Shown here one piece after another: positions 8,085 through 30,029 of a stretch of 32,000 bases of DNA. Origin of the DNA: an uncultured Erysipelotrichaceae bacterium. Its GTDB lineage: Bacteria > Bacillota_I > Bacilli_A > Erysipelotrichales > Erysipelotrichaceae. The notes under the pieces were generated by a model. That model made no database searches, was not told the DNA's origin, and saw nothing but the letters and a program-made list of their open reading frames with translations. Position 1 is the first letter of the stretch. Every line of letters starts with the position of its first letter. Where the stretch lies: contig CAYNZZ010000001.1 of the NCBI GenBank assembly GCA_964401865.1, forward strand, positions 120,001-152,000. Reading direction: 5' to 3'. The position numbers and the translations under genes were made by a program.

Positions 8085-8120
8085 TTTTGTATTATTTTCA
8101 AGTGTTCAAAGTTAAGTGCA

Positions 8121-8157
8121 AAAGAGTGTAGTCATTGGAAAACTGCACTCTTTTTGT
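8121..8157 (+). terminator. rho-independent terminator
   Basis: Stem aaagagtgtag (8121-8131) / ctgcactcttt (8143-8153) with one G-U pair, followed by tttt. Confidence 0.7.
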
Positions 8158-8288
8158 AATTTAATTGATTAATTAGTCTATAAAATTACTATGGGCTTAA
8201 TTAATAAGGATAAAGACTCTTTTAAAATGCAGTGATTAACATTGTTTTTATTGCTTTTGTGTAATGAGTTAGCTATATCAATTAAATA

Positions 8289-8317
8289 TTGACAAGATAA
8301 AAATATAGCCATAAAAT
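8289..8317 (+). promoter_or_regulatory. sigma-A type promoter for the T-box/trpBA transcript
   Basis: TTGACA (8289-8294), a 17-nt spacer, then TAAAAT (8312-8317), directly upstream of the T-box leader. Confidence 0.65.
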
Positions 8318-8323
8318 CAAAGC

Positions 8324-8597
8324 ATAAAACCGTTGATGCGGAGATAACGGCAATGATGCCTCTACAGAGAACCTGTGATGCTGAGAATCGGGTGAGAAAC
8401 AAGTTGTCAAATGGACCGTTGAGGGCGCAGTGAAATGTTTATCAGAGTATTATGCGACGTGTGGACATACGTAAGTTGTCAGGGATATGTTGGTATCCTG
8501 TAAGTGCATGGTAATTGCCATGAATTCGAGGTGGCACCGCGGATAGTAAGTTCTGTTCGTCCTTGATAGATTTAGTTCTGTCAAGGATTTTTTATTT
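8324..8597 (+). promoter_or_regulatory. T-box leader (tRNA-sensing riboswitch), Trp specifier UGG
   Basis: Stem I elements AGAGA (8365-8369) and GGTGAGAA (8391-8398). Candidate specifier aaaTGGAcc, with TGG at 8412-8414 followed by the usual purine. Conserved T-box core GGTGGCACCGCG at 8530-8541. Terminator hairpin ccttgatag (8561-8569) / ctgtcaagg (8579-8587), followed by atttttta. It sits directly upstream of trpB. Confidence 0.85.
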
Positions 8598-8639
8598 GAC
8601 AGAGATAAAAATGACTTTTGTTAGAAGGGAAATGTGAAT

Positions 8640-9830
8640 ATGATAAATTCAAAAGGTCGTTTTGGTATTCATGGTGGACAGTATATACCAGAAACATTGA
8701 TGACAGCAGTTAGTGAATTAGAAAAAGCTTACGATTTCTATAAGAACGATCCAAAATTCAATGAAGAACTTAATGAGCTATTAAATGAGTATGCAGGTAG
8801 ACCGTCAAGACTCTATTATGCCAAAAAAATGAGTAAAGACTTAGATGGTGCAAAGATTTATTTAAAGCGAGAAGATCTTAATCATACTGGCGCTCATAAA
8901 ATAAATAATGTTTTAGGTCAAGCCCTTCTTGCCAAAAAAATGGGTAAGAAAAGATTAATTGCAGAGACTGGGGCAGGGCAACATGGAGTTGCAACAGCGA
9001 CGGCAGCGGCACTTATGGGAATGGAATGCGTAATTTATATGGGCGAAGAAGACACTAAACGCCAAGCCTTAAACGTATATCGGATGCGTTTATTAGGGGC
9101 GGAAGTTATACCGGTTAAGACAGGTACAGCTACTCTTAAAGATGCAGTTTCAGAAGCGATGCGAGAATGGGCGTCAAGAATAGATGACACACATTATTGC
9201 TTGGGTTCAGTGATGGGCCCTCATCCCTTTCCGACAATAGTTCGTGATTTTCAAGCTGTTATCTCTAAAGAAATAAAAGAACAAATATTGATAAAAGAAG
9301 GGCGATTACCGGATGCAGTTATCGCTTGCGTTGGTGGTGGTTCAAATGCGATTGGTACTTTTTATAATTTCATAAATGATAAAGAAGTTAGATTGATTGG
9401 ATGTGAAGCAGCAGGCAGAGGAGTCAACACCAGAGAAACAGCTGCAACGATATCTACTGGCAGGTTAGGAATTTTTCATGGAATGAAGTCCTATTTTTGC
9501 CAGAATAAAGATGGTCAAATTGCTCCAGTATATTCTATTTCAGCCGGTCTTGATTATCCTGGTGTTGGCCCGGAGCACGCCCACTTATTTGATATCGGCA
9601 GAGCAGAATATGTAGCAATTACTGATGAAGAAGCAGTTGATGCTTTTGAATATCTTTCAAGAACTGAGGGAATTATTCCGGCTATTGAATCATCACACGC
9701 ACTTGCATACGCCATGAAAATTGCACCATCTATGAGCAAGGATAAAATAATTGTGGTAACTTTATCTGGAAGAGGCGATAAAGATTGTGCAGCCATTGCT
9801 CGTTATAGAGGAGAGAAAATTGATGAGTAG
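8640..9830 (+). CDS. trpB: tryptophan synthase beta subunit
   Basis: ORF 8634..9830. I prefer ATG 8640, which has 9-nt spacing from GAAGGGA (8624-8630), over GTG 8634. PLP-lysine motif HTGAHKINN, plus AETGAGQHG and GGGSNAIG, are all intact. Confidence 0.96.
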
Positions 9831-10545
9831 GATTGAAAAAGCATTTATTAAGAAAAAACTCTTGATTCCATTTTTTGTTTGTGGATATCCAAATCTTGAA
9901 ATAAGTGGAAACGCTATTAAAGAAGCAGTTAAAAATGGCGCTGATATAATAGAACTAGGTATCCCCTTTTCAGATCCTGTCAGCGAATGTCCTGCAGTTC
10001 AAAAAGCTAATATCATAGCCTTAAACAATCAGATTACAACAGATAAGGTTTTTCTGTTTGTCCAAGAGTTACGCAAAAATATTGATATTCCAATAGTATT
10101 TAGGACATATGCCAATGTAATATTTTCTTATGGAACGGAAAAATTTATTGCAACTTGTAAAATAATAGACATTGATGGAATTATTGTTCCTGATCTTCCA
10201 TATGAAGAAAAAGATGAGTTTTTGCCATTTTGTCAAAGATATGGAGTGCATCTTATTTCTGCGGTTGCTGAAGCATCAAAAGAACGCATTGCAATGATAG
10301 TCAAAGAAGCCGATAGCTTTGTTTATGTATTTTTAGATAATAGAGATAAATATTCATCTTTGATTCAAACGATTAAAGAAAGCACTTCTATTCCTTGCGT
10401 TGTGGAGTGTGATGATTTGCCTTTAGATCAAAAAATAGAAGCTGATGGTGTAGTTATATTGTCAAGTTTAATCGAATTGTTTGAAAAATATGGAATTGAT
10501 GCACCAAAATATATTGGTAAGTATATTCATGAAATCAATTCATAG
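9823..10545 (+). CDS. trpA: tryptophan synthase alpha subunit homolog, active-site degenerate
   Basis: ORF 9787..10545. ATG 9823 (MSRIEKAF) follows AGAGGAGAG and overlaps the trpB stop by 8 nt. It has [14 protein letters not shown] and YANVIF like TrpA. However, DPLADGP is replaced by DPVSECP, the loop-6 segment is shortened, GFGI is VECD and GSA is LSS (see finding). Confidence 0.85.
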
Positions 10546-10591: not shown

Positions 10592-10810
10592 TGTTTAAGC
10601 AAGGGAAGAGAAATAAAGATCGAAAGCTTAGATGGTTATGGAATAGCTGATACCAGTGCTAGTTCATACGGTAATTTACAAACCACACCAAAAAATAACA
10701 TTTCCTATAAGGCTGAATGGATAATTAAAACATCTGATGAGCAAGTGGAAGTAGTTGCTTCCAATAATAAGAGTGGTAAAGCCAGCAAAATCATTTCCAT
10801 TGATAAGTAG
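10592..10810 (+). pseudogene. 3' remnant of an unidentified gene (no start codon)
   Basis: 72 stop-free codons in an AT-rich region ending at TAG 10808-10810: ...SKGREIKIESLDGYGIADTSASSYGNLQTTPKNNISYKAEWIIKTSDEQVEVVASNNKSGKASKIISIDK. There is no ATG/GTG/TTG until 20 codons from the end. Four stop codons lie immediately upstream in the same frame. It is followed by a good terminator. Confidence 0.35.
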
Positions 10811-10815
10811 TTTAA

Positions 10816-10847
10816 AAATGTACGGAATATTAAAACCGTGCATTTTT
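10816..10847 (+). terminator. rho-independent terminator (probable end of the trpBA transcript)
   Basis: Stem aaatgtacgg (10816-10825) / ccgtgcattt (10836-10845) with one G-U pair, running into a T run (5 consecutive T at 10843-10847). Confidence 0.65.
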
Positions 10848-10930
10848 ATATAATTAATCATTGGAAAAATACATTTGAATAATTAAAGAAACATATTAAA
10901 AATAATAAATGATAAGTATAATTAAAAATA

Positions 10931-11590
10931 ATGAAAAAGTATGATAAAAGAAAAATCAGTGTCTATCTTTTTGCACTTTGTCAAATTATTACAATTTTGA
11001 TAGCTGTCTTTATATCTTTATGCTATGAGAGTACCATTTTTTACTTATTGGTACTTTTGCTAGTTGCATCAACTTTGTTAGGAGATTTTTTCATTTATAA
11101 GATTGTTCTTGGACTTATAGATAAAAATAAACAAGAAGCCGCATTAAAATCCATTAATGAACAAGCAAATAACTATAAACTTTTTTATGAGTTTTGCAAT
11201 ATCCAACAAGATAATATTCGACATTTTTACCATGATTTAAACAATCACTTGATTACATTAAGATTGTTGGCAAAAAGCAGCCGAAAAGATTATGATGAGT
11301 ATCTTTCAAATTTAAAAGAAAAATATAGAAATACTGTTGTTGCAGACAAAACAAATGACATATTGATAAATATATTAATTGAATATTATAGTGACAGTGA
11401 ATTTCAAATTGATATTTTGAATGAAAATGAAGCTGATGATATTGATTATCTTGAATTGTTAAATTTATTTGATGATTTAAAGAAAGAATGTAATTTAGTG
11501 ACTATTGACTTTAAAAAAAGAATCATTAATGCTGATGTAAATAGTGAAGAACTGACTAATAAGTATTCAAACTATATTTTTATAAAATAA
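10931..11590 (+). CDS. 2-TM histidine-kinase-like protein with H-box/DHp region but no ATP-binding G-boxes
   Basis: 219 aa. Two N-terminal TM helices, then IRHFYHDLNNHLITLRLLAKSSRKDYDEYLSNL, which is an HPK10/SpoOB-type H-box. The following region (TNDILINILIEYY...IDYLELLNLFDDLKKEC) resembles the start of a GHKL domain, but the N-box NA is replaced by DL. The protein ends before any GxG box. Confidence 0.7.
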   Translation: MKKYDKRKISVYLFALCQIITILIAVFISLCYESTIFYLLVLLLVASTLLGDFFIYKIVLGLIDKNKQEAALKSINEQANNYKLFYEFCNIQQDNIRHFYHDLNNHLITLRLLAKSSRKDYDEYLSNLKEKYRNTVVADKTNDILINILIEYYSDSEFQIDILNENEADDIDYLELLNLFDDLKKECNLVTIDFKKRIINADVNSEELTNKYSNYIFIK

Positions 11591-11608
11591 GAAAGGCACT
11601 ATTCATAG

Positions 11609-12829
11609 ATGACTAGAGATATATTTTGGCATTTAAATCAAATTCCTATATGTTTATCGTGGATTTATTTTTATCATGGTATGCTTACAAGATCTAAGCG
11701 AGGTAGTAGTTCGGATTTAATTCGTACAAGCATTGCGGTTATTGCTCAAACGATAATCGGAATTATTATTGCCTATTTGATTCCTGATCATAATTTTTTA
11801 AGGTTGATCATTAATTCTTTTGTCATTTGTGGATTAATAGTTTTGATAAGGAAAGCCAAGATTAAAGAAGCTATCTTCTGTTATGTAATTAATTTAACTA
11901 TAAACATTGTAATAGAAGTGTTAAGCATGTTAGGCTCTATGACATTAGATACACTAATTCATTCGACATCAACTAGTTTTTCTTTCAATGCGACATTCTA
12001 TATTTTAAATGATGTTTTATGTTTACTGGCATATATTGTTGTTGTGAGAATAAGAAATAAACAAACAATAAATAAACAAAAACATATTTTTGAAATAATT
12101 ATGTTATTGATTTTAAATCAATTTGCATGGATATATTGGGTTTCATATTATATAGTACTGCGTACTAAACCGAATGTTATTTTGACTTGTTTTGTATTGT
12201 TTATTCAAACGGTTAACATTATTGTTGTGTTTATTTTAATTAAAGGCTATGCGAGAATAAATAAAGAAGAGACTAAAACGATGATTAAGAATGATAATGC
12301 CGATAGATTAAAAAGGCTTATTATGGTTTTAAGTGATAAACAGAATGTAATTAATAATATTTATTTAAAGATTGAAAATGAAAACATTGAAATGATAGAA
12401 CTGAACAAGATGACTAATGAACTAAAGAATATAAAGAATAGGATATATTGTGATAGTCCAGTCGTTAATGCTTTACTCAGTTATTTTTATGATGAATGTA
12501 GTAAAATCGCTATTAAGTACACCGTAAATGTGCACTGCAGCTTACAGAATAATATTGATGATTTTGAATTCAATACTCTTTTGAGTAACATATTAAAGAA
12601 TGCACTTGAATCATGTGAGCGCTATGTTAATTTAGAGATTGATTGCAAAAATAATACTTTAGTTATTAAATGTCAAAATGATTGTGCAAATAAAAGAAAA
12701 ACCATGAAAATGATTCATGGTAATGGAATTCATATTATCAACAATATACTAGATGGATATGGTGGAAACTATAACTTATTCATTGACAATAATATTGCAA
12801 CTTCAGTATGCATATTAAATATCAATTAA
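11609..12829 (+). CDS. AgrC/LytS-like 6-7 TM GHKL ATPase protein lacking the phospho-acceptor histidine
   Basis: 406 aa with about 7 hydrophobic helices in residues 1-215. C-terminal GHKL elements are SPVVNALLSYFYDECSKIAIKY, N-box LLSNILKNALESC and G-box HGNGIHIINNILDGYGGN. The ~95-aa linker between the last TM and the ATPase domain contains no His. The expected RHDxxNH position reads LSDKQNV. Confidence 0.75.
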   Translation: MTRDIFWHLNQIPICLSWIYFYHGMLTRSKRGSSSDLIRTSIAVIAQTIIGIIIAYLIPDHNFLRLIINSFVICGLIVLIRKAKIKEAIFCYVINLTINIVIEVLSMLGSMTLDTLIHSTSTSFSFNATFYILNDVLCLLAYIVVVRIRNKQTINKQKHIFEIIMLLILNQFAWIYWVSYYIVLRTKPNVILTCFVLFIQTVNIIVVFILIKGYARINKEETKTMIKNDNADRLKRLIMVLSDKQNVINNIYLKIENENIEMIELNKMTNELKNIKNRIYCDSPVVNALLSYFYDECSKIAIKYTVNVHCSLQNNIDDFEFNTLLSNILKNALESCERYVNLEIDCKNNTLVIKCQNDCANKRKTMKMIHGNGIHIINNILDGYGGNYNLFIDNNIATSVCILNIN

Positions 12830-13535
12830 AAAAGTTATTAAGAAATTTATTCATTATTGCTTTGGAATAGGTTTTTGAAACAGGAATGATTTTTCCATTT
12901 AACATTGTTAGTGAAGAATTATTTACGGATTGTATGTAGTTGACATTGACTATGTATGATCGATGGACTTTTGAGAAGAAATTCGGAAGTTTATTGACAT
13001 AATCATCAAAAGAGGCATATGTTTCAATAGTTTTATTATCTTTTAAAGTGAAGATGATTTTTCTTAATGACTTTTCTAAAAAGAGAATATCATTAACTTT
13101 AATGATTGTAGTAGTCCGAGAATTTTTGATGGCTAAGCTTGTAATTTGCCTATCATCAATATTGCTGATAGCCTTTTTTAATGCGTTTGATAGTCGCAAG
13201 TTCAATTCATCTTTTAATATACAGTAAATGTGATTACATGAATATACTTCGGGCAGATAATTCGGGTATGCAGTAATGAAAATAATTTGCGCATCTTTAT
13301 TTATATTGTTTATCTTCATACCAAAAGGAATTGAAGTATCGCCTTTATCATTCATCTTTATATCCATTAAAAATATATCGTATGTCTTATCGATGATGGT
13401 TTGGTTAATTGCGTTGATATCAGAGTATTTGTCTATTTTAAATGCATAGTTGTTTATAGTCAGATAATCGTCAACTAATTTGCTCAGTTCATTTAAGAAA
13501 ATATGATCGTCATCAAGAATAGCTATGTTAATCAT
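12822..13535 (-). CDS. LytTR-family response regulator (REC + LytTR DNA-binding domain)
   Basis: 237 aa. REC motifs ILDDD, IFLMDIKM (phospho-Asp) and IIFITAY. C-terminal LytTR motif FFSKVHRSYIVNVNYIQSV. Convergent with the upstream GHKL gene; the stop codons overlap by 8 nt (12822-12829). Confidence 0.9.
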   Translation of the reverse strand: MINIAILDDDHIFLNELSKLVDDYLTINNYAFKIDKYSDINAINQTIIDKTYDIFLMDIKMNDKGDTSIPFGMKINNINKDAQIIFITAYPNYLPEVYSCNHIYCILKDELNLRLSNALKKAISNIDDRQITSLAIKNSRTTTIIKVNDILFLEKSLRKIIFTLKDNKTIETYASFDDYVNKLPNFFSKVHRSYIVNVNYIQSVNNSSLTMLNGKIIPVSKTYSKAIMNKFLNNFFN

Positions 13536-13704: not shown

Positions 13705-15438
13705 TTAGTCTTGAATTATAAAGTCATCTTTTCTAAATTGCAAACTGTATAAGTGAGCGTAGATGCCATTTTTGGCAAGCAGTTCTTTATGAGTTCCTTT
13801 TTCTTGTATTGTTCCATCGGCAATAACTGCTATTTCATTAGCATTTTTAATTGTTGATAGACGATGAGCAACTACAATTGTAGTTCTTCCTTTACACAAT
13901 TCATCTAGAGCATTTTGAATTAGTATTTCTGTTGTATTGTCTAAGGCGCTGGTCGCTTCATCGAGTATTAATATTTGTGGATTTTTTAAAAAGACACGAG
14001 CGATGCTCAAACGTTGTTTTTGTCCACCTGATAATTTAATTCCTCTCTCACCAATTTGTGTGTCATAGCCATCTGGTAAATTCATAATATAGTCATGAAT
14101 ATTAGCTTTTTTAGCAGCTTCAATCATTTCTTCTTCGCTAGCATCTAAACGTCCATAGAGAATATTTTCTTTGATTGTTCCGCCGAATAAGAACACATCC
14201 TGTTGAACGATGCCAATGTTTTTTCTTAAAGATTCATAAGTAATATCATTTATATTGATATCATCAATAAGAACTTCGCCACTTGTAGCTTTATAAAAAT
14301 TGGGTATTAAATGGCATATTGTTGTCTTTCCTCCACCACTTGGACCAACTAAAGCCAATGTTTGACCTTGAGGAATATCCAAACTGATGTTTTTTAATAT
14401 ATCTTTAGAATCATCGTAAGAGAAAGACACATTTTTGAATTCGATATGTCCAATTGCCTTTCCTATTGGCTTAGCATCTTTGTTTTCTACTTCTATCGGT
14501 TCATCGATTATTTCCAAGAAACGCTTAAAGCCAGTAACACCATTTTGATATTGTTCCATAAAATTAATCAATGTAGTTAATGGATTGATGAACAGATTAA
14601 TAGAAACAATGAAAGTTGAATAATCGGCGAAATTGATATTTCCTTGATATAGATATAACCCTCCAGCAATTAATACAATAACATTGAATACATCAGCGAT
14701 AAATGATGTAGAAGAATAAAACATACCCATAGCTTTATAAGCTTTTGAACGTGAAGCGACAAAATCATTATTTCCCACTTCAAATTTTTCTTCTTCTTTT
14801 TCGGAGTTAGTAAATGCCTTTGTAACACGAACTCCGGAAATACTACTTTCAAGAGCTGCATTGATGGCTGCGACATTTTTCCTGCTCTCCATAAAAGCAT
14901 CTTTCATCCTCTTTCTAAGTAAAATAGTGATGATAACTAAAATTGGTACACAAGTAAAAATGATTAGAGTTAAATTTAAATTGATACTTGCTAAATAAAT
15001 GAAAGACCCCAAGACCATAATTCCGCAGATAAACAAGTTTTCAGGTCCATGGTGAGCTAGTTCGCTAACTTCCATCAAGTCATTTGTCATACGCGACATT
15101 ATTTTTCCTGTTTCATGATCGTCGTAATAAGAGTATGGCAGTTTTTGAAGATGTGCGAACATATCGCTTCGCATTGCTGCTTGCATCTTTACGCCAATGA
15201 CATGTCCGTAGTATTGAACAAAGTAGCGTAGTAGCATACGAATAAAATATAAAATAAATAATGAAACTCCAAATAGTATAATCATTTCTACTTTTCTATT
15301 GGGAATAAAATCATTAAGCATGGTTCTGGTAATGATTGGATATGTCATACCGATTATGGAAATAAGTAGTGATGCCAACATATCAAGCAAAAACATTTTC
15401 TTATGCGGTTTATAGTAACTAATAAATCTTTTTAACAT
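13705..15438 (-). CDS. ABC exporter, fused permease/ATPase (type I exporter, MsbA/multidrug-like)
   Basis: ORF 13705..15453. The N-terminus MLKRFISYYKPHKKMF from ATG 15438 is typical of this family. Six-TM domain, Walker A GPSGGGKTT, signature LSGGQKQR and Walker B ILILDEATSALD. No C39 peptidase domain. Confidence 0.93.
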   Translation of the reverse strand: MLKRFISYYKPHKKMFLLDMLASLLISIIGMTYPIITRTMLNDFIPNRKVEMIILFGVSLFILYFIRMLLRYFVQYYGHVIGVKMQAAMRSDMFAHLQKLPYSYYDDHETGKIMSRMTNDLMEVSELAHHGPENLFICGIMVLGSFIYLASINLNLTLIIFTCVPILVIITILLRKRMKDAFMESRKNVAAINAALESSISGVRVTKAFTNSEKEEEKFEVGNNDFVASRSKAYKAMGMFYSSTSFIADVFNVIVLIAGGLYLYQGNINFADYSTFIVSINLFINPLTTLINFMEQYQNGVTGFKRFLEIIDEPIEVENKDAKPIGKAIGHIEFKNVSFSYDDSKDILKNISLDIPQGQTLALVGPSGGGKTTICHLIPNFYKATSGEVLIDDININDITYESLRKNIGIVQQDVFLFGGTIKENILYGRLDASEEEMIEAAKKANIHDYIMNLPDGYDTQIGERGIKLSGGQKQRLSIARVFLKNPQILILDEATSALDNTTEILIQNALDELCKGRTTIVVAHRLSTIKNANEIAVIADGTIQEKGTHKELLAKNGIYAHLYSLQFRKDDFIIQD

Positions 15439-15442
15439 AGTA

Positions 15443-15451
15443 CCCCCCCCC
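15443..15451 (-). repeat. G9 homopolymer (C9 on the plus strand) 4 nt upstream of the ABC exporter start
   Basis: The minus strand reads attaATGGGGGGGGGTACTATGTTAAAA. The tract is both the only SD-like element for ATG 15438 and in-frame Gly codons behind an alternative ATG at 15453. Confidence 0.9.
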
Positions 15452-15550
15452 ATTAATATTTTTATATTCTATCAAAAAATAATCAATGACACTAATATTT
15501 GAAAATGAAAAGAATGTATTTAAACATAATATATTTTTTTAAATAGTATA

Positions 15551-15579
15551 TTGCATTAAATAATAGTGAGTGTTACAAT
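15551..15579 (+). promoter_or_regulatory. candidate sigma-A promoter of the padR operon
   Basis: TTGCAT (15551-15556), a 17-nt spacer, then TACAAT (15574-15579), 20 nt before the padR ATG. Confidence 0.5.
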
Positions 15580-15599
15580 ACAGACAAGGAGGAGGCGAG

Positions 15600-15917
15600 A
15601 TGAATGCTCAATTTAAAAAAGGGGTCCTAGAAATGTGCGTATTAAGTCAACTGGCTGTTAAGGACAAATACGGTTATGAGTTGACAGAGATCATTTCTGC
15701 TTCTATGTCGATTGCAACAGGTACGCTGTATTTAATATTAAAAAGACTAAAAGATGATGGGTTAGTTGAAACATATTTGGTTGAATCCTGCGATGGACCA
15801 GCTAGAAAATATTATCACATTACAGAAAAAGGCAGAAAAGCAGAAAACGAGCAGAAAAAAGAGTGGTTTGAATTTGTGAAGGAAGTTGAAAAGATAATTG
15901 GAGGTATTGAGGAATGA
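15600..15917 (+). CDS. PadR-family transcriptional regulator
   Basis: ORF 15570..15917. ATG 15600 follows AAGGAGGAGG. MNAQFKKGVLEMCVLSQLAVKDKYGYELTEII...GTLYLILKRLKDDGLVE...ARKYYHITEKG is the PadR winged-helix signature. Confidence 0.93.
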   Translation: MNAQFKKGVLEMCVLSQLAVKDKYGYELTEIISASMSIATGTLYLILKRLKDDGLVETYLVESCDGPARKYYHITEKGRKAENEQKKEWFEFVKEVEKIIGGIEE

Positions 15918-16972
15918 CACGCCAAGAATACATGGAAGAGTTAGCAAACGCAATTAGTCATTGCCCAAGAAATCAGCAAGATGAGATTTTGGCTGATTTT
16001 GATGAACATTTTGACATAGCGACATCTAAAGGATTAAGTGATGATGAAATCATTGAGTCTTTAGGTGACATAAAAGATTTTATTAAAGAATTAAAAGTAG
16101 AAGAAAATTGGAATACTAAACCGATATTTGAAATGGATGATGAAATAACAGAAGTCGAAATAATTTGTGAGGGTTGCGATGTCAAGATTGTTGAAGGGGA
16201 ACGTACTGAGATGAATATAAAGAGTTGGCGCGCAACGATGAACAGTAAGTACAATATTTCTGAGAAAGTCATTGACAACAAATACATTATTAAAGTAGAA
16301 CTCATCAAAAATCGCTTCTTCTTTTTAAATACTGATTTAATAGTAGAAGTCAGCATAAATAATACAATAAAAAAAGTGAGAGTTGAAAACAAAACCGGCG
16401 ACGTAAGTTATGATGCTTCTTTGATGCTTGTTAAAGAAGTCGAAATGATTTTAGGCAATGGTGATGTTAGCGTTGTTGGTTCGATTGAGAATTTAACTAT
16501 CAATAATAATAAGGGTGATGTAGAAATTGACACAATAGCTGGTGAATATGTTAATATTCATGCCAATCTAGGTGATGTTAGTGTTTTGGCTAGTGCAAAT
16601 GAAGTCTTTATTAATGCAAATAGTGGCGACGTTGATTTTGATGTCAAATCTAGAATATTAGATGTTCATTCTAATAAAGGAGATATTGAAGGCACTGTTT
16701 CATCTAATAGCATTCAATGCATAAGCAATATGGGAGATATAAAATGCACGATAATTGATGCCGAAGAAGTGGTGTGTAAAACTAATATGGGCGACATTGA
16801 AGCGGATATCGCGTCTTTGAGTGATTATATCCTAGAAACCAAAACATCAATGGGTGATATTGATACTGAAGAAATTAATGCAATTGATTGTGGGGATTGT
16901 TTTATCAAAGGCGATCAAAATACATCGATATATTTAAAAACTAATATGGGCGACATCAAAGTAAAGGATTGA
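15914..16972 (+). CDS. DUF1700-like N-terminal helical domain fused to DUF4097-type beta-helix repeats, no TM segment
   Basis: ATGA overlap with the padR stop. The N-terminus MTRQEYMEELANAISHCPRNQQDEILADFDEHFDIATSKGLSDDEIIESLGDIKDFIKEL is the PadR-partner DUF1700 pattern. The C-terminal half has about 10 repeats of x(N/K/S)xGD(I/V)xxxx at a ~17-20 aa period. No hydrophobic helix is visible. Confidence 0.8.
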   Translation: MTRQEYMEELANAISHCPRNQQDEILADFDEHFDIATSKGLSDDEIIESLGDIKDFIKELKVEENWNTKPIFEMDDEITEVEIICEGCDVKIVEGERTEMNIKSWRATMNSKYNISEKVIDNKYIIKVELIKNRFFFLNTDLIVEVSINNTIKKVRVENKTGDVSYDASLMLVKEVEMILGNGDVSVVGSIENLTINNNKGDVEIDTIAGEYVNIHANLGDVSVLASANEVFINANSGDVDFDVKSRILDVHSNKGDIEGTVSSNSIQCISNMGDIKCTIIDAEEVVCKTNMGDIEADIASLSDYILETKTSMGDIDTEEINAIDCGDCFIKGDQNTSIYLKTNMGDIKVKD

Positions 16973-21230: not shown

Positions 21231-21578
21231 ATGAAAAAACAATTTCGAGTTAGAAAGAATCAGGAATTCTCTAAGATAATTGCTGGAAAGCATATTTTTA
21301 GGGGTGAATCTTTCATTATATATGCATCAATAAGAAATGAAGATCATTCACGCGTAGGCATCAGTGTATCAAAAAAACTCGGCAATGCGGTTTGTCGCAA
21401 TAAAATTAAAAGGCAGTTGAGAATGATGTTGCAGAGCCTATTGGACTTCAAAGAAGATAATTACGATTATATTGTTATTGTACGCCCGAATTATCTAAAT
21501 ATGAGCTTTGATGACAATAAAAAGGACTTGGAAAAGACTATTAAAAAAGTTAAAATGAAAGGGTATGTAAAGAGGTAA
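21231..21578 (+). CDS. rnpA: ribonuclease P protein component
   Basis: 115 aa and basic. N-terminal KKQFRVRKNQEFSKI and central VSKKLGNAVCRNKIKRQLR (RNR motif) are typical RnpA. Conserved position after rpmH. Confidence 0.92.
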   Translation: MKKQFRVRKNQEFSKIIAGKHIFRGESFIIYASIRNEDHSRVGISVSKKLGNAVCRNKIKRQLRMMLQSLLDFKEDNYDYIVIVRPNYLNMSFDDNKKDLEKTIKKVKMKGYVKR

Positions 21579-21582
21579 ATCA

Positions 21583-22452
21583 ATGAATAAAAAGAAATTA
21601 TTATTGGTATTGACCATAATCGGATTACTGTTTTTGATGAGTGGTTGTTCAATTCCGACTGATGAAAGTGGTAATGTAATTCTAATTACTGAAGCAACAA
21701 CATTTGAGACAATGCTTCAAACAGAGGGCTTGTTTTCAGCAATATTTGTATTCCCGTTAGTTAAGATAATTGAGTGGTTAACTCCTCTTACTAATGTAGG
21801 TATCGCTATTATTGCCGTTACTGTATTAGTAAATGGATTAGCATTATTATTGACATTTAAGTCAAATATCGAATCACAAAGAATGCAGTTAATTCAACCG
21901 GAAATTCAAAAGATTCAAAGAAAATACGAAGGTAAGGAAGATCAGACTTCTAAGATGCGCGCAGCAACTGAAATGCAGAATATCTACAAGAAATATGATA
22001 TTCATCCATTCAGAACAATGTTTGCACAATTCATTCAATTCCCTATCTTAATCGCAATCTATTATGCAGTTAGAAGATCGAGCGCAGTCGTTACTGGTTC
22101 ATTCTTAGGTATGAGTTTAGAAGTAACTCCTATCGAAGGTTTGCAAAGTGGGCAATTCAGTTATGTAATTTTATTTGTGTTGATGATTTTAGCTCAGTTC
22201 CTTTCAATGAAGGCTCCTATGTATCTTCAGGAAAAGAAACTTAAGAAAGAAGCTGAAATTCATCACCGTCGCTATGAAAAACCACAAAATCCAGCCGGAA
22301 ACATGATGTATTTTATGATTATCTTCGTTGGTGTCTTGATGATTAACTGGCCAAGTGCGATGTCTTTGTACTATTTTATTTCATCATTTGTAGCAATCTT
22401 GAAGAGTATTTTAATCAATTCTCTAACTGAGAAAGAAGTAAAGAAGGACTAA
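21583..22452 (+). CDS. yidC: membrane protein insertase YidC/SpoIIIJ type (lipoprotein form)
   Basis: 289 aa. Lipobox LMSGC, multi-TM 60-kDa-IMP core (QPEIQKIQRKY, YKKYDIHPF) and basic C-terminus. Confidence 0.93.
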   Translation: MNKKKLLLVLTIIGLLFLMSGCSIPTDESGNVILITEATTFETMLQTEGLFSAIFVFPLVKIIEWLTPLTNVGIAIIAVTVLVNGLALLLTFKSNIESQRMQLIQPEIQKIQRKYEGKEDQTSKMRAATEMQNIYKKYDIHPFRTMFAQFIQFPILIAIYYAVRRSSAVVTGSFLGMSLEVTPIEGLQSGQFSYVILFVLMILAQFLSMKAPMYLQEKKLKKEAEIHHRRYEKPQNPAGNMMYFMIIFVGVLMINWPSAMSLYYFISSFVAILKSILINSLTEKEVKKD

Positions 22453-22453
22453 T

Positions 22454-23059
22454 ATGAAAAAATATACTGCTAAAAATCTTGATGAAGCATTAGCGCTTAT
22501 CATCAAAGAGCAAAATTGTAAAAAAGAAGATATTACTTATGAAGTCGTTGAAGAAAGTAAACATTTCTTAGGTATCGGAAATTCAATAACTATTAGTGCA
22601 TATACAAATCAAGATATTAAAGATTTCATTTTTGACTATCTAGGCTCATATTTTACAAACTTGAATCAGGAAGTCGCAATTGAAATTATCCTCGAAAAGG
22701 ACTTGTTCAAAGTTATTTTAGATGCTGAAAATAACGCTATTATTATAGGCAAAGGGGGACAGACTTTAAGAGCTATCTCGACTGTATTAAAAGCAGCAAC
22801 TAATAATACATTCAAGAAACGTGTAAATATTGTAGTTGATATCAATAACTATAAAGAAGATCGTTATCGTAAAGTTAAATCAATAGCCAATCGTGTAGCT
22901 AAAGAAGTAGCTAAAACACATATTGATGCTGCTTTAGATCCAATGCCTAATGATGAAAGAAAAGTTATTCATGAGTTCTTATCGAAAAGAGAACACATCA
23001 AAACTGAATCAGAGGGTGACGGAAGCCAAAGACATTTAGTCATTAAATATGTAGAGTAA
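22454..23059 (+). CDS. jag: Jag/KhpB RNA-binding protein (Jag_N + KH + R3H)
   Basis: 201 aa. KH-like IIGKGGQTLRAI and R3H-like ERKVIHEFL. Conserved position after yidC. Confidence 0.9.
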   Translation: MKKYTAKNLDEALALIIKEQNCKKEDITYEVVEESKHFLGIGNSITISAYTNQDIKDFIFDYLGSYFTNLNQEVAIEIILEKDLFKVILDAENNAIIIGKGGQTLRAISTVLKAATNNTFKKRVNIVVDINNYKEDRYRKVKSIANRVAKEVAKTHIDAALDPMPNDERKVIHEFLSKREHIKTESEGDGSQRHLVIKYVE

Positions 23060-23127: not shown

Positions 23128-23685
23128 ATGAAGTATTCATGGGAATTTAAATTAGAGTGTGTTAAGAATTATAAGATAGGTAAGAGTAACGTTAAACCGG
23201 AATACGCAAAATGTAACCAGAAAGGATTTTCTCATAAAGTAAGAGAATGGGTCAGGATATATGAACTACATGGAATAGATGGCTTGAAACACAAACCATC
23301 AAACAAAGAATGGACAAAAGAAGAAAAATTCGATTTAGTATCTAAGGTATTAGCAGGCAATTCTATTAAAAACACAGCTATTGGAGTAGAGATCGATCCT
23401 GGATTACCCCATAAATGGGTTAAAAAATATAAATATGAAGGTTACAATGGTTTAGAAGCAAAAAAAAGAGGAAGACCTCCAAAGGAAAATTCCATTATGC
23501 CAAAACCAAGTAACAATAAAGAAACCGAGCTTATAAAAAGCGAGTTAGAAGAACTAAAACTTCTAAGAAGAAGAAATGAGTATCTTGAAGCTGAGAATGC
23601 CTACTTAAAAAAAGTAAGAGCCTTGGCAATAGAGAAGATGGCATCATCAGCCAAGGCGAAAAAGCTAAAGTCATCAAAGAACTAG
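23128..23685 (+). CDS. IS3-family transposase OrfA (HTH + leucine-zipper region)
   Basis: 185 aa. The C-terminal heptad-like ELEELKLLRRRNEYLEAENAYLKKVRAL is typical of IS3 OrfA. RBS AGGAGGAGGGG. Confidence 0.9.
   Translation: MKYSWEFKLECVKNYKIGKSNVKPEYAKCNQKGFSHKVREWVRIYELHGIDGLKHKPSNKEWTKEEKFDLVSKVLAGNSIKNTAIGVEIDPGLPHKWVKKYKYEGYNGLEAKKRGRPPKENSIMPKPSNNKETELIKSELEELKLLRRRNEYLEAENAYLKKVRALAIEKMASSAKAKKLKSSKN
23607..23613 (+). promoter_or_regulatory. programmed -1 ribosomal frameshift site (A AAA AAA G)
   Basis: The run of seven A at 23607-23613 lies in orfA codons TTA AAA AAA GTA. The -1 frame is open from here (KKSKSLGNREDGIISQGEKAKVIKELVNKEGYRLSDLLKVSKLPRSTYYFE) straight into orfB. Confidence 0.8.
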
Positions 23686-23732
23686 TCAACAAAGAAGGAT
23701 ATAGATTAAGCGATTTATTAAAAGTTTCAAAA

Positions 23733-24527
23733 TTGCCTAGATCAACTTATTATTTTGAAGTCAATAAAACAAATAATGATAATAAAAATAAAGAAATCAT
23801 CAATGAAATAACAACTATATTTTATGATAACAAGCAAAGATATGGAGTAAGACGCATTACAGCAGAACTCCATAATAGAGGCCATATAATCAATCATAAG
23901 AAAGTTCAAAGATTAATGTCTATCTTGGGTTTGAAAGGCAAAAGACCAAAAGAGAAGTATCATTCATATAAAGGTGATATTGGTAAAAAAGCGGATAATA
24001 TCATTAACCGTGATTTTAAAGCTTATAAGCCTAATCAAAAATGGACTACTGATGTATCACAATTTAATTTTTCTTGGGGCAAATGTTACTTATCACCGAT
24101 ATTAGATATATATAATGATGAAATTATATCTTATGATTTATCTCTTCGTCCCAATCTTGAACAAATAATAAATATGTTAAACAAAGCATTTAACAAATAT
24201 GATAGCCTTGACGACCTAATATTCCATTCTGATCAAGGTTGGCAATATCAACATCAAGCTTTTATAGATAAGCTTAAAGAAAAAGGAATTAATCAATCTA
24301 TGTCTCGTAAAGGAAACTGTTATGATAATTCAATAATGGAATCATTCTTTGGAACTTTGAAAAATGAAATGTACTATGGATTAGAATCAACTTATACTTC
24401 TTTTGAAGAATTCGCTAAAGCAATTGATGAATATATACATTATTTCAACAATAACAGGATTCAATCCAAAACAAAATGGATGTCACCTGTAAAATACAGA
24501 GAAACATCCATATGTTTAAATAATTAA
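23733..24527 (+). CDS. IS3-family transposase OrfB (DDE/rve integrase core), expressed as an OrfAB fusion
   Basis: 264 aa as listed, although the TTG start is an ORF-caller artefact. DDE core motifs WTTDVS, HSDQGWQY and RKGNCYDNSIMESFFGTLKNE. Confidence 0.9.
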   Translation: MPRSTYYFEVNKTNNDNKNKEIINEITTIFYDNKQRYGVRRITAELHNRGHIINHKKVQRLMSILGLKGKRPKEKYHSYKGDIGKKADNIINRDFKAYKPNQKWTTDVSQFNFSWGKCYLSPILDIYNDEIISYDLSLRPNLEQIINMLNKAFNKYDSLDDLIFHSDQGWQYQHQAFIDKLKEKGINQSMSRKGNCYDNSIMESFFGTLKNEMYYGLESTYTSFEEFAKAIDEYIHYFNNNRIQSKTKWMSPVKYRETSICLNN

Positions 24528-25203: not shown

Positions 25204-25264
25204 ACTAACGATTGCTATATTTTAGCTATATTGAAAGAATGAGGCAATTTAGCTTCATTAATAT

Positions 25265-25274
25265 GGGGGGGGGG
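25265..25274 (+). repeat. G10 homopolymer abutting a -35 hexamer
   Basis: Counted directly: G at 25265-25274, immediately followed by TTGAAT. Confidence 0.95.
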
Positions 25275-25307
<33 letters not shown>

Positions 25308-25334
25308 GATAAAAAAGGGAGGATAATTTATCTA

Positions 25335-25751
25335 ATGAAAAAAACAGTGGGAACAATTATATTGTTGTGTGGGCTAGTATTATTAAGCTTAGGGTTATTG
25401 ATTAATATACCTGGAGAAGTTTTAACGACATATGAATATCTCGACAATGAAAAAACAGATTATTATGTTCGTGGTAATAAGTATTCAAGTATTGATGAGT
25501 ATGTCGGCGGGGATGCATATAACTATATTATAGGAGCAACATTGGTTGGTTCAAGAATCAGTGGCTCAATTGCTGCTAAATCAATCTATATCTCTAGCGG
25601 GATTATATGTATTTGTTTGGGTATAAAGGAAATAGCCGATAACAAGAATCAAGAAGAAATTATTAATCACATTAAATCAATAGATGGAAAAGTGCAAAAA
25701 GATACTGAACTAGAAACTAAAAATGAAATAGATGAGGCATTAAAATTCTAA
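25335..25751 (+). CDS. small 2-TM membrane protein, unknown function
   Basis: ORF 25212..25751. The upstream part reads through the repeats, so I take ATG 25335 (MKKTVGTIILLCGLVLLSLGLL), which follows GGGAGGA. Second hydrophobic helix IYISSGIICICLGI, exposed loop with EYVGGDAYNYIIGA, charged C-terminus. Confidence 0.7.
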   Translation: MKKTVGTIILLCGLVLLSLGLLINIPGEVLTTYEYLDNEKTDYYVRGNKYSSIDEYVGGDAYNYIIGATLVGSRISGSIAAKSIYISSGIICICLGIKEIADNKNQEEIINHIKSIDGKVQKDTELETKNEIDEALKF

Positions 25752-27523
25752 TGAACAACGAAATATTTAAAGAGTTATCTAATTATAAGGGGAGCAATTA
25801 CACATCGTTCTTATATTGGATATACAAAGTTGAATATGTTTCCGTTAAGAATCATTTTTATGTAAAAATATATTTATTTAATAGATTATTTAATGAAAAA
25901 AAATTAAATGTCGTTTCTTTTGAAATAAACAATCGAGTTTACGTTATCGAAAATTTTAAAGAAATATCTACTTATAACAACAAAAATATATTGGGTTGTT
26001 TTGTGGAATTAGATTCTGATGATTACAATAAAGATATAAAAATTGTTTTAGAACAAATAGATGGCAAAGACTACGCTGTTGATGGTGCTGAAATAAAATA
26101 TTCATTTAAAGATTTTGTAAAAGATGACCAAATGCTTTGTAATATTTATCCTGATTACAAGAATAATCATGTTGTTTTTCCTTTAATAGAAAATAATTAT
26201 TGGCAATGTTCGTGCGGCAGAATTCATACTATTGATGATATTAACTGTGATTGTGGGTTAAATTTATCGGTGATAAAGGAAATTGCTTTTTTTGATTTTT
26301 GTGGAGCGTATGCAAAAGAATATTTTAAGAATGGTATAGAGTATGATTATTCTATATCGTTTGATAAAAATATAGAAAACTGTAAAGATAAATTTAGCAA
26401 ATTGCATGGATATAATCTTGAAAATATAGAAGATTTTATTGATATAGCTGACGAAAAAATAGCTTTTGATGAAAAAATCGAAATATTGGATAAAGAAAAG
26501 AAAAACAGAAAAAAGAGAAATACAATCATTTGTGTGATTATACTCGCATTAATTGCTTTGGTGGCTACTTTTTTCGTTACTAAACCAGAATATTTTAAAT
26601 ATATTGAATGTTTAGGGGAAAAAGATTTGTTTACTGGTAGCAACTGCTTTTGTGAGATTACAGTACTCGATAGCGAACAAAGGGGTAATAATCTATATAA
26701 AGAATATATAACAAATATATATGAGAATGGCGAATATGAAAAATTTGTAAATGAGGTATATATAAATGGAATAAATAAAAAAAGAATCATCAATAGTGAA
26801 GACACGTACGATTATACGATACTAGATGAAGATGTGAGTGAGATGTTTTTAAAATCTTTAGAAATTTATACTAAAGAAAATAAAAATGATGTAGGTAAAT
26901 TGCATCATATTGATTTCATTGCAAAGAAATTTACGAATATTCCTGATGATTTTGTTGATGACGAATTCTATGGTTATTATAGTCGAAGCGTTACTTCCGG
27001 AAGCTCAGATGTAACTAAATATTTTTTGAATTCATATAAGGAAAGTGGAAATAGAAAAGACTATGTAAATTATCTTAAGTCTATTCATTATGAAATATCT
27101 GTGGCCGGTCAAGATTATAAAGATTCCGCAAGTTTTGAGAAAGGAAGTTTCTCATACGGTATAATTAGTTCAAATGGTTTTGAATCGTTTAATCAATACT
27201 ATAACGAATTGAAAAGCGCATTAGCAAATGATTCTTTTTATGATTCTATTATTAATGATCAATGTTATGACAAAGTGAGATTAAAAGGTTATTGGAGTGG
27301 TAATGGCTATTACTTCGAACTGAAAAGCGACGGACACATATCTTATAATATTCCTTGGGTTGATTATGGAGATTATTATAATTTGTATAATCATTATATA
27401 ACTTTATATGAAGAAGGAAACGATTACGGAAGAAACTTGTTTGGAATTAATTTTATTTCAGACACAGAAATTGAGATTGAATCGTGGAAAAATTTTAAAA
27501 CTTATAAATTATATAAACAGTAA
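25751..27523 (+). CDS. single-pass membrane protein with N-terminal zinc-ribbon-like motif, unknown function
   Basis: 590 aa. TAATG overlap with the previous gene. WQCSCGRIHTIDDINCDCG (CxC-x10-CxC), then KKNRKKRNTIICVIILALIALVATFFV (positive-inside rule, so the N-terminus is cytoplasmic), then a ~300-aa Tyr/Asn/Asp-rich C-terminal domain. Confidence 0.75.
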   Translation: MNNEIFKELSNYKGSNYTSFLYWIYKVEYVSVKNHFYVKIYLFNRLFNEKKLNVVSFEINNRVYVIENFKEISTYNNKNILGCFVELDSDDYNKDIKIVLEQIDGKDYAVDGAEIKYSFKDFVKDDQMLCNIYPDYKNNHVVFPLIENNYWQCSCGRIHTIDDINCDCGLNLSVIKEIAFFDFCGAYAKEYFKNGIEYDYSISFDKNIENCKDKFSKLHGYNLENIEDFIDIADEKIAFDEKIEILDKEKKNRKKRNTIICVIILALIALVATFFVTKPEYFKYIECLGEKDLFTGSNCFCEITVLDSEQRGNNLYKEYITNIYENGEYEKFVNEVYINGINKKRIINSEDTYDYTILDEDVSEMFLKSLEIYTKENKNDVGKLHHIDFIAKKFTNIPDDFVDDEFYGYYSRSVTSGSSDVTKYFLNSYKESGNRKDYVNYLKSIHYEISVAGQDYKDSASFEKGSFSYGIISSNGFESFNQYYNELKSALANDSFYDSIINDQCYDKVRLKGYWSGNGYYFELKSDGHISYNIPWVDYGDYYNLYNHYITLYEEGNDYGRNLFGINFISDTEIEIESWKNFKTYKLYKQ

Positions 27524-27572
27524 AAATAGAGTAAACACAAATATTAATCAACATTTTAAAAAGGAGAAATTT

Positions 27573-28169
27573 ATGAAAAAAATAACAATTGCTACACTGA
27601 TGTCAATTACATTAATGTTAATTTCATGTCATTCACATAACTTTACCAACGCAACTTGCACAGAACCTAAAAAATGTGAATGCGGCGAGAAAATAGGGGA
27701 ACCTTTAGGGCATACAGTCAAAATAGGTGTGTGTGATAGATGCGGCGAAAATATTAATTATGAAGAAATGGAAAGCTTTCATAATTATTTAAACAAAATT
27801 AACGATGATACATCTTTTCTTAGTGATTTCTTCGAGCAAACATATTATAACTATCTTGCCTATTATCCTTATTACGATATACATAATTACATAAAAAATC
27901 ATGTAGATACATTAATTGATATAGAAAATAGTGTTGATGAGATAATTAAAATATGTCAAAAATATCCAAACGAACTTAGTGACATAGGAAGGCAAGCAGA
28001 ATTAGTTAAATCAGCAATTCCTAGTCCATTAAGTACCGATGATAAAGAAGCTCTAAAAAAACATGTTGAGGGTATGACTGAATTTTTAAATCAATATAGT
28101 GTTTTATTAAAAATGTGTGTAGAATATAACGAAGAAGAAATAAACAAATTAGATAAATTCACGAACTAA
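27573..28169 (+). CDS. Cys-rich lipoprotein, unknown function
   Basis: ORF 27408..28169. ATG 27573 follows AAAGGAG. Signal peptide MKKITIATLMSITLMLISC (lipobox LISC), then HNFTNATCTEPKKCECGEKIGEPLGHTVKIGVCDRCGENI, then a helical C-terminal part. Confidence 0.8.
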   Translation: MKKITIATLMSITLMLISCHSHNFTNATCTEPKKCECGEKIGEPLGHTVKIGVCDRCGENINYEEMESFHNYLNKINDDTSFLSDFFEQTYYNYLAYYPYYDIHNYIKNHVDTLIDIENSVDEIIKICQKYPNELSDIGRQAELVKSAIPSPLSTDDKEALKKHVEGMTEFLNQYSVLLKMCVEYNEEEINKLDKFTN

Positions 28170-29273: not shown

Positions 29274-30026
29274 TTAGGCATCCTCCTCAAAAATATTCTT
29301 ATCTTTAATTCTATAAGACATACCAGTAATCTTGATTATTTCACAGTGATGTACCAGCCTATCAATGATCGCATTGGCTATTACAGGATCCCCAAATACC
29401 TCACCCCATTTGGAAAATGGCTGGTTAGTGGTAAGAATTGTGGATCTTTTTTCGTATCTTGCAGCTATTAACTGAAAGAATGCATATGACGAATCCCTAT
29501 CTACCGGGAGATAGCCAATCTCATCAATTATTAATAATGAGTATTTCAGATAATGTTTAACTACCTGTTCCACTCTGTTTTCCTTGGCAGCTCTTTTGAA
29601 TTTCTCCATAAGCTCTGCAAAGTTAATAAAATATGTTGATACTCTTTGACCTGCCGCTTCCATACCTATGGCAGTAGCTAAATGGGTTTTACCTACGCCT
29701 GGTGAACCCATAAGAATGATATTGGCTTTCTCATCCATGAATCTCAATGTAGCCAAATCATCAATCTTTCTTTTGTTTATTGTTGGCTGACAAGAGAAAT
29801 CAAAGTCTTTCAGCGTTTTGTGATAAGGGAATGATGATACAGTAATATTAATTTTCCTGGCTCTTTCATCTCTAAAATCAATCTCAGCTTTAGTTAATTC
29901 AACTAATGAATCAACTAGGGATTTATCTTCATTTCTTCTATCATCCAGATATATAGGTAATATTTCCTTTATCTTGGTTAATGATAAGGAATCAAGATTA
30001 TTATTTAGTTCAGCATATGTAGCCAT
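29274..30026 (-). CDS. istB: IS21-family helper ATPase IstB
   Basis: 250 aa. Walker A GSPGVGKTHLA and Walker B LLIIDEIGYLP, DnaC-like. Confidence 0.95.
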   Translation of the reverse strand: MATYAELNNNLDSLSLTKIKEILPIYLDDRRNEDKSLVDSLVELTKAEIDFRDERARKINITVSSFPYHKTLKDFDFSCQPTINKRKIDDLATLRFMDEKANIILMGSPGVGKTHLATAIGMEAAGQRVSTYFINFAELMEKFKRAAKENRVEQVVKHYLKYSLLIIDEIGYLPVDRDSSYAFFQLIAARYEKRSTILTTNQPFSKWGEVFGDPVIANAIIDRLVHHCEIIKITGMSYRIKDKNIFEEDA

Positions 30027-30029
30027 ATA

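Follow-up and report, generated by a model that had tools for sequence, protein, structure and literature searches.

A putative AgrC-type sensor kinase divided between two membrane proteins beside a LytTR response regulator in an Erysipelotrichaceae genome

Three adjacent genes, referred to here as A, B and the regulator gene, were analysed in a stretch of 32,000 nucleotides from an uncultured Erysipelotrichaceae bacterium (assembly GCA_964401865.1, contig CAYNZZ010000001.1, positions 120,001 to 152,000 of the forward strand; hereafter the window), and our results point to a naturally split AgrC-type kinase, conserved among a group of gut Firmicutes with a LytTR regulator alongside. An acceptor histidine and an ATP-binding domain are here carried by separate but co-encoded polypeptides, and the motifs left on each are complementary. 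Both proteins are descendants of HPK10-type kinases that have lost complementary functions: B has kept a sensor of seven transmembrane (TM) helices together with a predicted catalytic and ATP-binding (CA) domain, while losing the phospho-acceptor histidine and shortening the hairpin that should bear it, and A has kept the last two TM helices and a full-length hairpin of the dimerization and histidine phosphotransfer (DHp) type, with its H-box, while losing ATP binding. The three open reading frames (ORFs), their strands and their lengths are exactly those of an original prediction, made from the sequence alone, on which this work follows up.

The explanation that we consider probable is that A, B and the regulator constitute a three-protein system of the AgrC/AgrA type, in which A and B would form a hetero-oligomer in the membrane, His101 of A would be phosphorylated in trans by B, and phosphorylated A would then serve the regulator. 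It is the simplest scheme to make use of all the conserved features. The membrane complex of A and B would be a bundle resembling an A/B hetero-dimer, or else an A2 DHp dimer with B on its flanks, and a signal sensed by the TM domain of B would position its CA domain for phosphorylation of His101 of A. The phosphoryl group would subsequently pass from A to Asp58 of the LytTR regulator, which in its phosphorylated state would change the transcription of its targets. Where two B paralogues are present, as in Holdemania and its relatives, two sensors would feed one acceptor. That A and B associate physically, that phosphorylation takes place in trans, which way the phosphate moves and what sort of signal is involved are all matters of inference. 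The original prediction had offered two readings, an obligate hetero-oligomeric, trans-phosphorylating kinase or a kinase plus pseudokinase pair; the former appears the better supported, and the latter is the poorer fit, since both proteins are incomplete as kinases.

Protein B

Hydropathy and an AlphaFold2 model both give B seven TM helices, and Pfam places a HATPase_c_5 domain at residues 318-396 (E 2.8e-9). B accordingly combines the polytopic (6-7 TM) sensor of HPK10/AgrC kinases with a HATPase_c_5 CA domain possessing the N-box Asn, the G1-equivalent Asn and the G2 glycines, and lacks on the same polypeptide the H-box histidine (R-x-x-x-H-D-x-x-N). Histidines occur in B at positions 8, 23, 61, 118, 159, 309, 370 and 375, with none in residues 160-308, the span from TM6 to the CA domain. 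This bears out the claim that B has no histidine where that of a DHp domain is expected.

The position of the missing residue was located through an alignment of 61 B-type and canonical HPK10 sequences, in which N327, N331, A332, N357, G371 and G373 are invariant. The resulting profile matches the AgrC kinase module 6E52 (E 9e-18) with its histidine column on the AgrC motif RKFRHDYVN, and this column, occupied by histidine in at least 90% of the 61 sequences, falls on Leu253 of B (NNIYLKIENE). The position had earlier been read as LSDKQNV, a reading that has to be abandoned, given that the profile alignments place the phospho-His column 10 residues downstream. In the AlphaFold2 model (predicted local distance difference test, pLDDT, 83, with most of the CA domain above 90), which was built from a mixed alignment of B-type and canonical sequences, the seventh TM helix runs on to residue 257 and is followed by a short return helix at 262-276, so that position 253 lies only 4 residues from the turn. 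The modelled CA domain superposes on that of AgrC (4BXI) with a Foldseek TM-score of 0.77 and a root-mean-square deviation of 2.1 Å; a phmmer search of B against PDB sequences returned nothing meaningful.

These features are shared across the family. When compared with canonical relatives, 12/12 B-type proteins lack the R-x-x-x-H-D-x-x-N-H box, showing instead the consensus L-[ST]-x-K-Q-x-V followed by residues other than His, and all 12 are about 13 residues short in the hairpin, through a deletion, and about 9 residues short in the ATP lid, through another, while keeping the N-box (LLSNxLKNAxE), the G1-equivalent Asn and the G-x-G of G2. An intact-looking N-box and G-box had been claimed for B; this stands for the N-box and for G2, and has to be qualified for the G-box region, which is not fully canonical and has a lid some 9 residues short. 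Furthermore, in an alignment of 14 B-family sequences, 20-29% identical to B of the window, the CA positions N327, L329, N331, A332, C355, N357, K367, G371, G373 and G386 are invariant, as are C281 and N287, where the CA domain begins, the polar residues N10, R65, E103 and D135 of the TM domain, and K244 of the hairpin, with Q245 nearly so.

Retention of the helical hairpin with its conserved K244-Q245 motif is what might be expected if B were complete as a kinase and phosphorylated itself at a non-canonical residue, with A as an accessory or competing substrate. We regard this as very improbable: a conserved histidine was sought in B, and none is invariant anywhere in the 14 B-family proteins, the histidine column being Leu; their hairpin holds no invariant His, Tyr or Ser; position 253 is Leu or Thr among population variants of B within a single species-level cluster; and the hairpin is truncated at the level of this pseudo-His.

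Two further observations concern B itself. Two cysteines do not vary within the B family, although they do among canonical HPK10 kinases: Cys281 (12449-12451), where the CA domain starts, and Cys355 (12671-12673), which precedes the G1-equivalent Asn by two residues. They could constitute a site for redox chemistry or metal binding close to the ATP pocket. Additionally, the B protein of one strain variant (P0004, 364 aa) has lost 42 aa in frame at about residues 79-120, in the TM3-TM4 region, a loss that would alter its membrane topology; this variant was recovered from three sequencing runs (L002:3275-4369, L003:1749-2843 and L004:319-1413), in each case with intact adjoining A and regulator genes.

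Protein A

The N-terminal part of A appears by hydropathy as a single hydrophobic block of 57 residues, which AlphaFold2 splits into TM helices at 6-31 and 35-58. The only histidines of the protein (98, 101 and 106) all fall within NIRHFYHDLNNHL, which holds His101, and the two TM helices and clear H-box that had been described for A are thus both recovered. As was also proposed, the GHKL region is degenerate: the equivalent of the N-box reads LNLFDDLKKE, in which Asn is absent, and about 35 further residues complete the protein, with no G-box among them. No match to A was found in Pfam or NCBIfam. In its AlphaFold2 model (pLDDT 82.8), the second TM helix extends as one long helix from 35 to 116, with His101 15 residues before the turn, followed by a return helix at 118-135 and a small alpha/beta stub at 144-218. 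The hairpins of the two modelled proteins therefore contrast, that of A being full-length and that of B ending 4 residues past the pseudo-His. In known kinases, a full-length DHp hairpin is the region where regulators dock.

Single-sequence word-index searches returned one or two relatives each, and a profile made from A and one such homologue was scored against 1.84 billion representative proteins. Its top matches were about a dozen proteins of 218-239 aa, and the next tier consisted of some 200 canonical kinases of about 430 aa, aligned over their residues ~160-340, which comprise the last two TM helices, the DHp domain and the first part of the CA domain. Against PDB sequences the A profile gave TM-helix noise only. 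The best-ranked Foldseek matches of the A model are almost all DHp-CA modules of kinases, including AgrC, and through the HPK10 profile the H-box column of A aligns with the AgrC motif RKFRHDYVN. A consequently possesses the H-box and predicted phospho-acceptor histidine of HPK10/AgrC kinases and lacks their ATP-binding CA domain.

Members of the A family range from 133 to 242 aa in length. Among 11 short members (17-38% identical to A), R97, Y100, H101, D102, H106 and Y124 are invariant, whereas the N-box Asn and all G-box residues are missing from every one; no ATP lid was thus encountered in this family, in which some members end after the DHp hairpin. A subgroup of mini-A proteins (133-146 aa) terminates directly after the second DHp helix while keeping H-D-x-x-N-H, and these forms, consisting of two TM helices and a DHp hairpin without the CA-like stub, are still paired with B. 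Consequently, the conserved core of A is its histidine-bearing hairpin. The stub also evolves faster than the TM and DHp part (ratio of nonsynonymous to synonymous polymorphism, pN/pS, 0.42-0.54 versus 0.21-0.37).

Conservation of the gene pair

Using a pattern derived from a 7-sequence alignment of the A family, we scanned genomes and metagenomes and found related loci in four Holdemania species or metagenome-assembled genomes (MAGs), in two other Erysipelotrichaceae/Firmicutes MAGs, in Anaerorhabdus and in human-type metagenomes; the relatives that carry the A-B system belong to the Erysipelotrichales. At 21/21 other A-bearing loci recovered by all searches, representing roughly nine lineages below ~65% identity, an A-type gene is directly followed by a B-type gene, and the pairing extends to a Logan contig (L001) with 37% identity and to Anaerorhabdus loci with a mini-A of 146 aa. 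At the loci from the pattern scan, A is always followed by a B homologue of 411-426 aa, usually with a second one in tandem. With B as bait, the only strong matches (at least 336 bits) outside the lineage of the window were two Anaerorhabdus proteins, both with a mini-A gene upstream, and the next matches (at most 74 bits) all have a histidine at the H-box position and are canonical kinases. One partner without the other was therefore not encountered, either downstream of the 21 A genes or upstream of B in the lineages reached with the B bait. However, the B-family word-index search missed the Holdemania proteins and returned Anaerorhabdus only, which makes it a weak test for B without A.

In 13/16 loci compared, the stop of A and the start of B overlap or abut, which suggests translational coupling; within the window itself the two genes are separated by 18 nt. 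Both genes are under purifying selection: across three independent lineage pairs, the ratio of nonsynonymous to synonymous substitution rates (dN/dS) is 0.09-0.27 in A and 0.10-0.29 in B. The 9 A variants and the 10 full-length B variants of the metagenome protein clusters are intact without exception. That each protein lacks a motif essential to a canonical kinase, and that one strain variant of B has lost 42 aa in frame from its TM region, might be taken to mean that the two genes are left over from kinase duplications and are decaying, with no joint function, an idea that we find hardly credible when dN/dS is 0.09-0.29, no lineage or population variant has a broken ORF, the remaining motifs are invariant at 17-38% overall identity, and both gene order and coupling are conserved.

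Alignment of the A family with the B family by hhalign (92% probability) sets residues 5-172 of A on 158-317 of B and His101 on Leu253. A and B are paralogous over the same region, namely TM6-7 and the hairpin, and are not consecutive pieces of one protein; simple fission, by which one gene was cut in two, is consequently rejected as their origin.

The regulator

A LytTR regulator gene is adjacent in most loci. It lies in convergent orientation just after the last B gene in the window and in L004, L006, L009, L010, L013 and L019, with the same 8-nt overlap in L004 and gaps of 16-29 nt in the other five, whereas it is co-directional in L005 and divergent upstream in L011 and L020-22. As predicted, the receiver domain (REC) of the regulator in the window retains its acidic residues (D8/D9 and D58), along with T88 and K108, and an alignment of 10 regulators indicates that D8/D9, D58, T/S88 and K108 are kept at related loci. 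Conservation of these residues in adjacent regulators calls for a phosphoryl donor, and A is the only H-box protein in the operon. Among the ORFs scanned, the window locus encodes one receiver protein only. L005 has a second regulator-like gene (9309-10070) with an Asn in place of the acceptor Asp, which may encode a pseudo-receiver.

It could also be imagined that no phosphorylation takes place, with B using ATP in some other way and the hairpin of A binding and sequestering the LytTR regulator by an anti-activator logic. The LytTR regulators of HdrRM- and BrsRM-type systems are not known to have receiver domains, whereas the regulator of the window has one, and His101, Asp102 and His106 of A are strictly invariant while the phospho-acceptor residues of the regulators are all conserved, which points to real phosphochemistry. 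Sequestration therefore seems improbable to us, even though membrane inhibitors of LytTR regulators are known (PMC6193735).

In L005-L010 and L013-L019 (Holdemania and other Erysipelotrichaceae), a single A gene is followed by two tandem His-less paralogues, B1 and B2. A more elaborate form of the proposed mechanism, which we put forward tentatively as somewhat doubtful, is that A, as a small membrane-anchored DHp subunit, provides a shared phospho-acceptor and regulator-docking platform for one or two different His-less 7-TM B subunits in an obligate heteromeric kinase, so that signals would be integrated at the acceptor histidine, and that the convergent regulator gene adds coupling through antisense transcription or transcriptional interference. 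If true, this combination of shared acceptor and convergent coupling could give switch-like behaviour of the sort modelled for split kinases.

Points against a split kinase and the phosphotransferase alternative

Several of our results weigh against a split kinase. B has an ATP lid some 9 residues short of that of most canonical relatives and scores modestly in Pfam, at 37 bits, which makes ATP binding and catalysis by B plausible rather than proven. The Foldseek matches of the A model are weak (best E 0.019), and no regulator was found within the examined flank of H. filiformis-type loci. The sample on which co-occurrence is based is small, mostly A-baited, and drawn from one bacterial order plus metagenomes, so that B-type proteins may also occur without A. 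Finally, the layout of A, a DHp hairpin with a dead CA-like domain, is also that of Spo0B and ChpT, which are charged by a receiver domain and not by a CA domain.

This last point deserves particular attention. Spo0B of Bacillus and ChpT of Caulobacter are soluble proteins that receive phosphate from a receiver domain in a phosphorelay, and A resembles them in having a histidine-bearing DHp-type hairpin and a CA-like domain without ATP-binding motifs, as well as in weak matches to SPOB_a (a DHp-type helix) in 3/11 members of its family. A might accordingly be a membrane-bound phosphotransferase of this kind, or a dedicated phosphatase, that exchanges phosphate with receiver domains and obtains it from a kinase encoded elsewhere. 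B would then be a His-less pseudokinase or sensor whose effect on A is purely allosteric, for example by switching A between phosphotransfer and phosphatase states; the second regulator-like gene of L005, with its Asp replaced by Asn, hints at more complex wiring. In our judgement this alternative is unlikely, although it is the main rival of the split-kinase reading. All ATP-binding positions of B are invariant at 20-29% identity, which is hard to reconcile with a purely allosteric pseudokinase, the window locus offers a single receiver protein, though an unlinked donor might exist, and A and B appear to be translationally coupled. Moreover, A differs from Spo0B and ChpT in its two TM helices, in always being paired with a His-less, CA-bearing sensor, and in the existence of mini forms without the CA-like stub.

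Relationship to known systems

By homology, the proposed split kinase and its regulator belong with the HPK10/AgrC-AgrA systems, although neither A nor B alone would qualify as a histidine kinase. They share with AgrC/AgrA a polytopic 7-TM protein with a HATPase_c_5 domain superposing on the CA domain of AgrC, an H-box (in A) that aligns with RKFRHDYVN, and a partner of the REC-LytTR type. In AgrC, however, histidine and CA domain lie on one polypeptide, whereas here they are distributed over two membrane proteins and the histidine column of B is Leu. A further difference concerns the neighbourhood, where we found no AgrB, AgrD or C39 exporter: no match to AgrB or Peptidase_C39 was obtained among the scanned window ORFs of at least 100 aa (trpB and trpA being judged from precomputed domain matches), in agreement with the earlier statement that no agrB-like gene or C39 exporter is adjacent. 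The locus hence has neither the adjacent AgrB/AgrD nor the C39 exporter with double-glycine peptide of agr-type loci.

Phosphorylation between chains can be obtained experimentally in EnvZ, where His-minus and CA-minus mutants complement each other, the CA domain of one protomer phosphorylating the histidine of the other. Those are, however, engineered mutants of one gene acting in a homodimer-like arrangement, whereas A and B are naturally diverged paralogues of unlike size and topology. The nearest precedents, besides Spo0B and ChpT, are CheA3 and CheA4 of Rhodobacter sphaeroides, which carry acceptor and catalytic domains on separate proteins; neither autophosphorylates alone, and their mixture phosphorylates the acceptor protein, from which the phosphate goes on to the regulator (PMC3591291). 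The logic of the split is the same as that proposed for A and B. The two systems nevertheless differ in kind, as CheA3/CheA4 are soluble class II proteins with a P1 histidine phosphotransfer (HPt) acceptor that operate in chemoreceptor arrays, whereas A and B are of class I, DHp-type and membrane-embedded (HPK10). The acceptor module of CheA3/CheA4 is not homologous to A, and no CheA-type domains (P1 HPt, P3-P5) are found in A or B, whose domains are DHp-type and HATPase_c_5.

RetS and GacS are two kinase-like membrane proteins thought to interact via their DHp helices (PMC8498467), but there RetS inhibits a complete kinase, GacS, whereas neither A nor B is complete and interaction would be required. 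With respect to the short membrane anchor of A, a truncated AgrC consisting of TM5-6 and the cytoplasmic module is an active kinase in liposomes (PMC3841183), and a two-TM anchor like that of A is hence compatible with a functional DHp module. We found no description of a split AgrC-type architecture in the literature, of which our coverage was incomplete, and this is therefore no proof of novelty.

Genomic context

The coordinates of the three genes and their features are given in Table 1. Convergent overlap of the B and regulator stops by 8 nt, with no terminator-like site between them, was part of the original description and was reproduced; the stop of B is TAA (12827-12829) and that of the regulator TGA (complement of 12822-12824). 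A terminator-like hairpin followed by a T-run does occur on the minus strand at 12701-12721, about 100 nt downstream of the regulator stop, where it lies within the 3' end of B over the codons of its G2 box, and it could mark the end of the regulator transcript inside the B coding sequence. Across the region of the locus, terminator matches are not enriched above chance (3 found versus 1.8 expected), and the count of promoter-like sites equals random expectation.

Table 1 Positions in the window of the A, B and regulator genes and of the features identified within them
Feature	Position	Strand	Description
Gene A	10931..11590	+	219 aa; putative membrane-anchored DHp/phospho-acceptor subunit, two TM helices, H-box hairpin and degenerate CA stub
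A, two TM helices	10946..11104	+	residues 6-58; homologous to final TM helix pair of B and of canonical HPK10 kinases
A, H-box NIRHFYHDLNNHLITL	11213..11260	+	predicted phospho-acceptor His101 (codon 11231-11233)
A, truncated CA-like alpha/beta stub	11351..11587	+	residues 141-219; no N-box Asn, no G1, no G2
Gene B	11609..12829	+	406 aa; 7-TM sensor, His-less helical hairpin, predicted ATP-binding CA domain
B, TM domain	11612..12253	+	residues 2-215; family-invariant polar N10, R65, E103, D135
B, His-less DHp-like hairpin	12254..12448	+	residues 216-280; ~13 residues shorter than canonical
B, Leu253	12365-12367	+	occupies phospho-His column
B, CA (GHKL) domain	12449..12826	+	residues 281-406
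B, N-box NTLLSNILKNALES	12572-12613	+	N327, N331, A332
B, G1-equivalent IKCQNDC	12665-12685	+	N357
B, G2 HGNG (HGNGIHI)	within 12701-12766	+	K367, G371, G373
Overlap of convergent stops, B and regulator	12822..12829		8 nt
Response regulator gene	12822..13535	-	237 aa; REC and LytTR (Pfam, NCBIfam)
Regulator, LytTR DNA-binding domain	12846-13112	-	Pfam/NCBIfam
Regulator, D58	13362-13364	-	REC residue

The gene order (tex, pgk, tpi, eno, a PTAC gene, trpBA, A-B-regulator and an ABC exporter, followed by genes for a PadR regulator and a toastrack protein, nrdDG and rnpA-yidC-jag) is that of an ordinary chromosomal context, and no relatives of A were found on plasmids in PLSDB. The ABC exporter has ABC_membrane and ABC_tran domains only. 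Upstream of A, no small ORF that might encode a peptide signal is shared across loci, and no direct repeats of the LytTR-operator type occur upstream of either A or the regulator gene. The 385-nt gap between trpA and A contains an inverted repeat of 32 nt (78% complementary, 10-nt loop; 10794-10867) that overlaps the start of a 61-aa ORF on the minus strand (10676-10861), which gene callers also report in close relatives and which has no Pfam match.

Elsewhere in the window, trpB and trpA (8085-10545) are unaccompanied by other trp genes, and the gap of ~550 nt before trpB gave no Rfam match at the gathering threshold, and hence no T-box or other known leader; no Rfam or tRNA matches were found in the window as a whole. 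The ABC exporter gene (13705-15453), itself upstream of the LytTR regulator gene, is divergent from a pair (15570-16972) in which a PadR-family regulator gene overlaps the start of a gene for a HAAS + DUF4097 ('toastrack') protein, and which looks like a separate small regulatory module beside the putative split kinase. Two insertion sequences, one an IS3-like pair of helix-turn-helix and rve ORFs (23128-24527) and the other an IS21-like istA/istB on the opposite strand (29274-31253), bracket a stretch of low GC content (27-29%) that comprises a nitroreductase gene and three ORFs without a Pfam match (179, 590 and 253 aa; 25212-28169), and that may be an acquired island. The rnpA-yidC-jag cluster (21231-23059), together with a change in the sign of GC skew near 28-29 kb, suggests that the window lies close to the chromosomal replication origin.

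Implications

Class I sensor kinases are regarded as one-chain proteins, their histidine-bearing DHp and CA domains covalently linked, and examples of trans-phosphorylation between separate chains come, to our knowledge, mainly from engineered mutants and the soluble pair CheA3/CheA4. Current annotation leaves A-type proteins without a domain match or source-given name and describes B-type proteins only as 'GHKL domain-containing protein', with the consequence that censuses of two-component systems would miscount these systems in gut Erysipelotrichales. If our interpretation is true, genome annotation would be corrected accordingly, and the pair would be a native system for investigating the way in which a CA domain reaches its histidine and TM signals pass between subunits. 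It might also show by what means a single output can be shared by two sensors.

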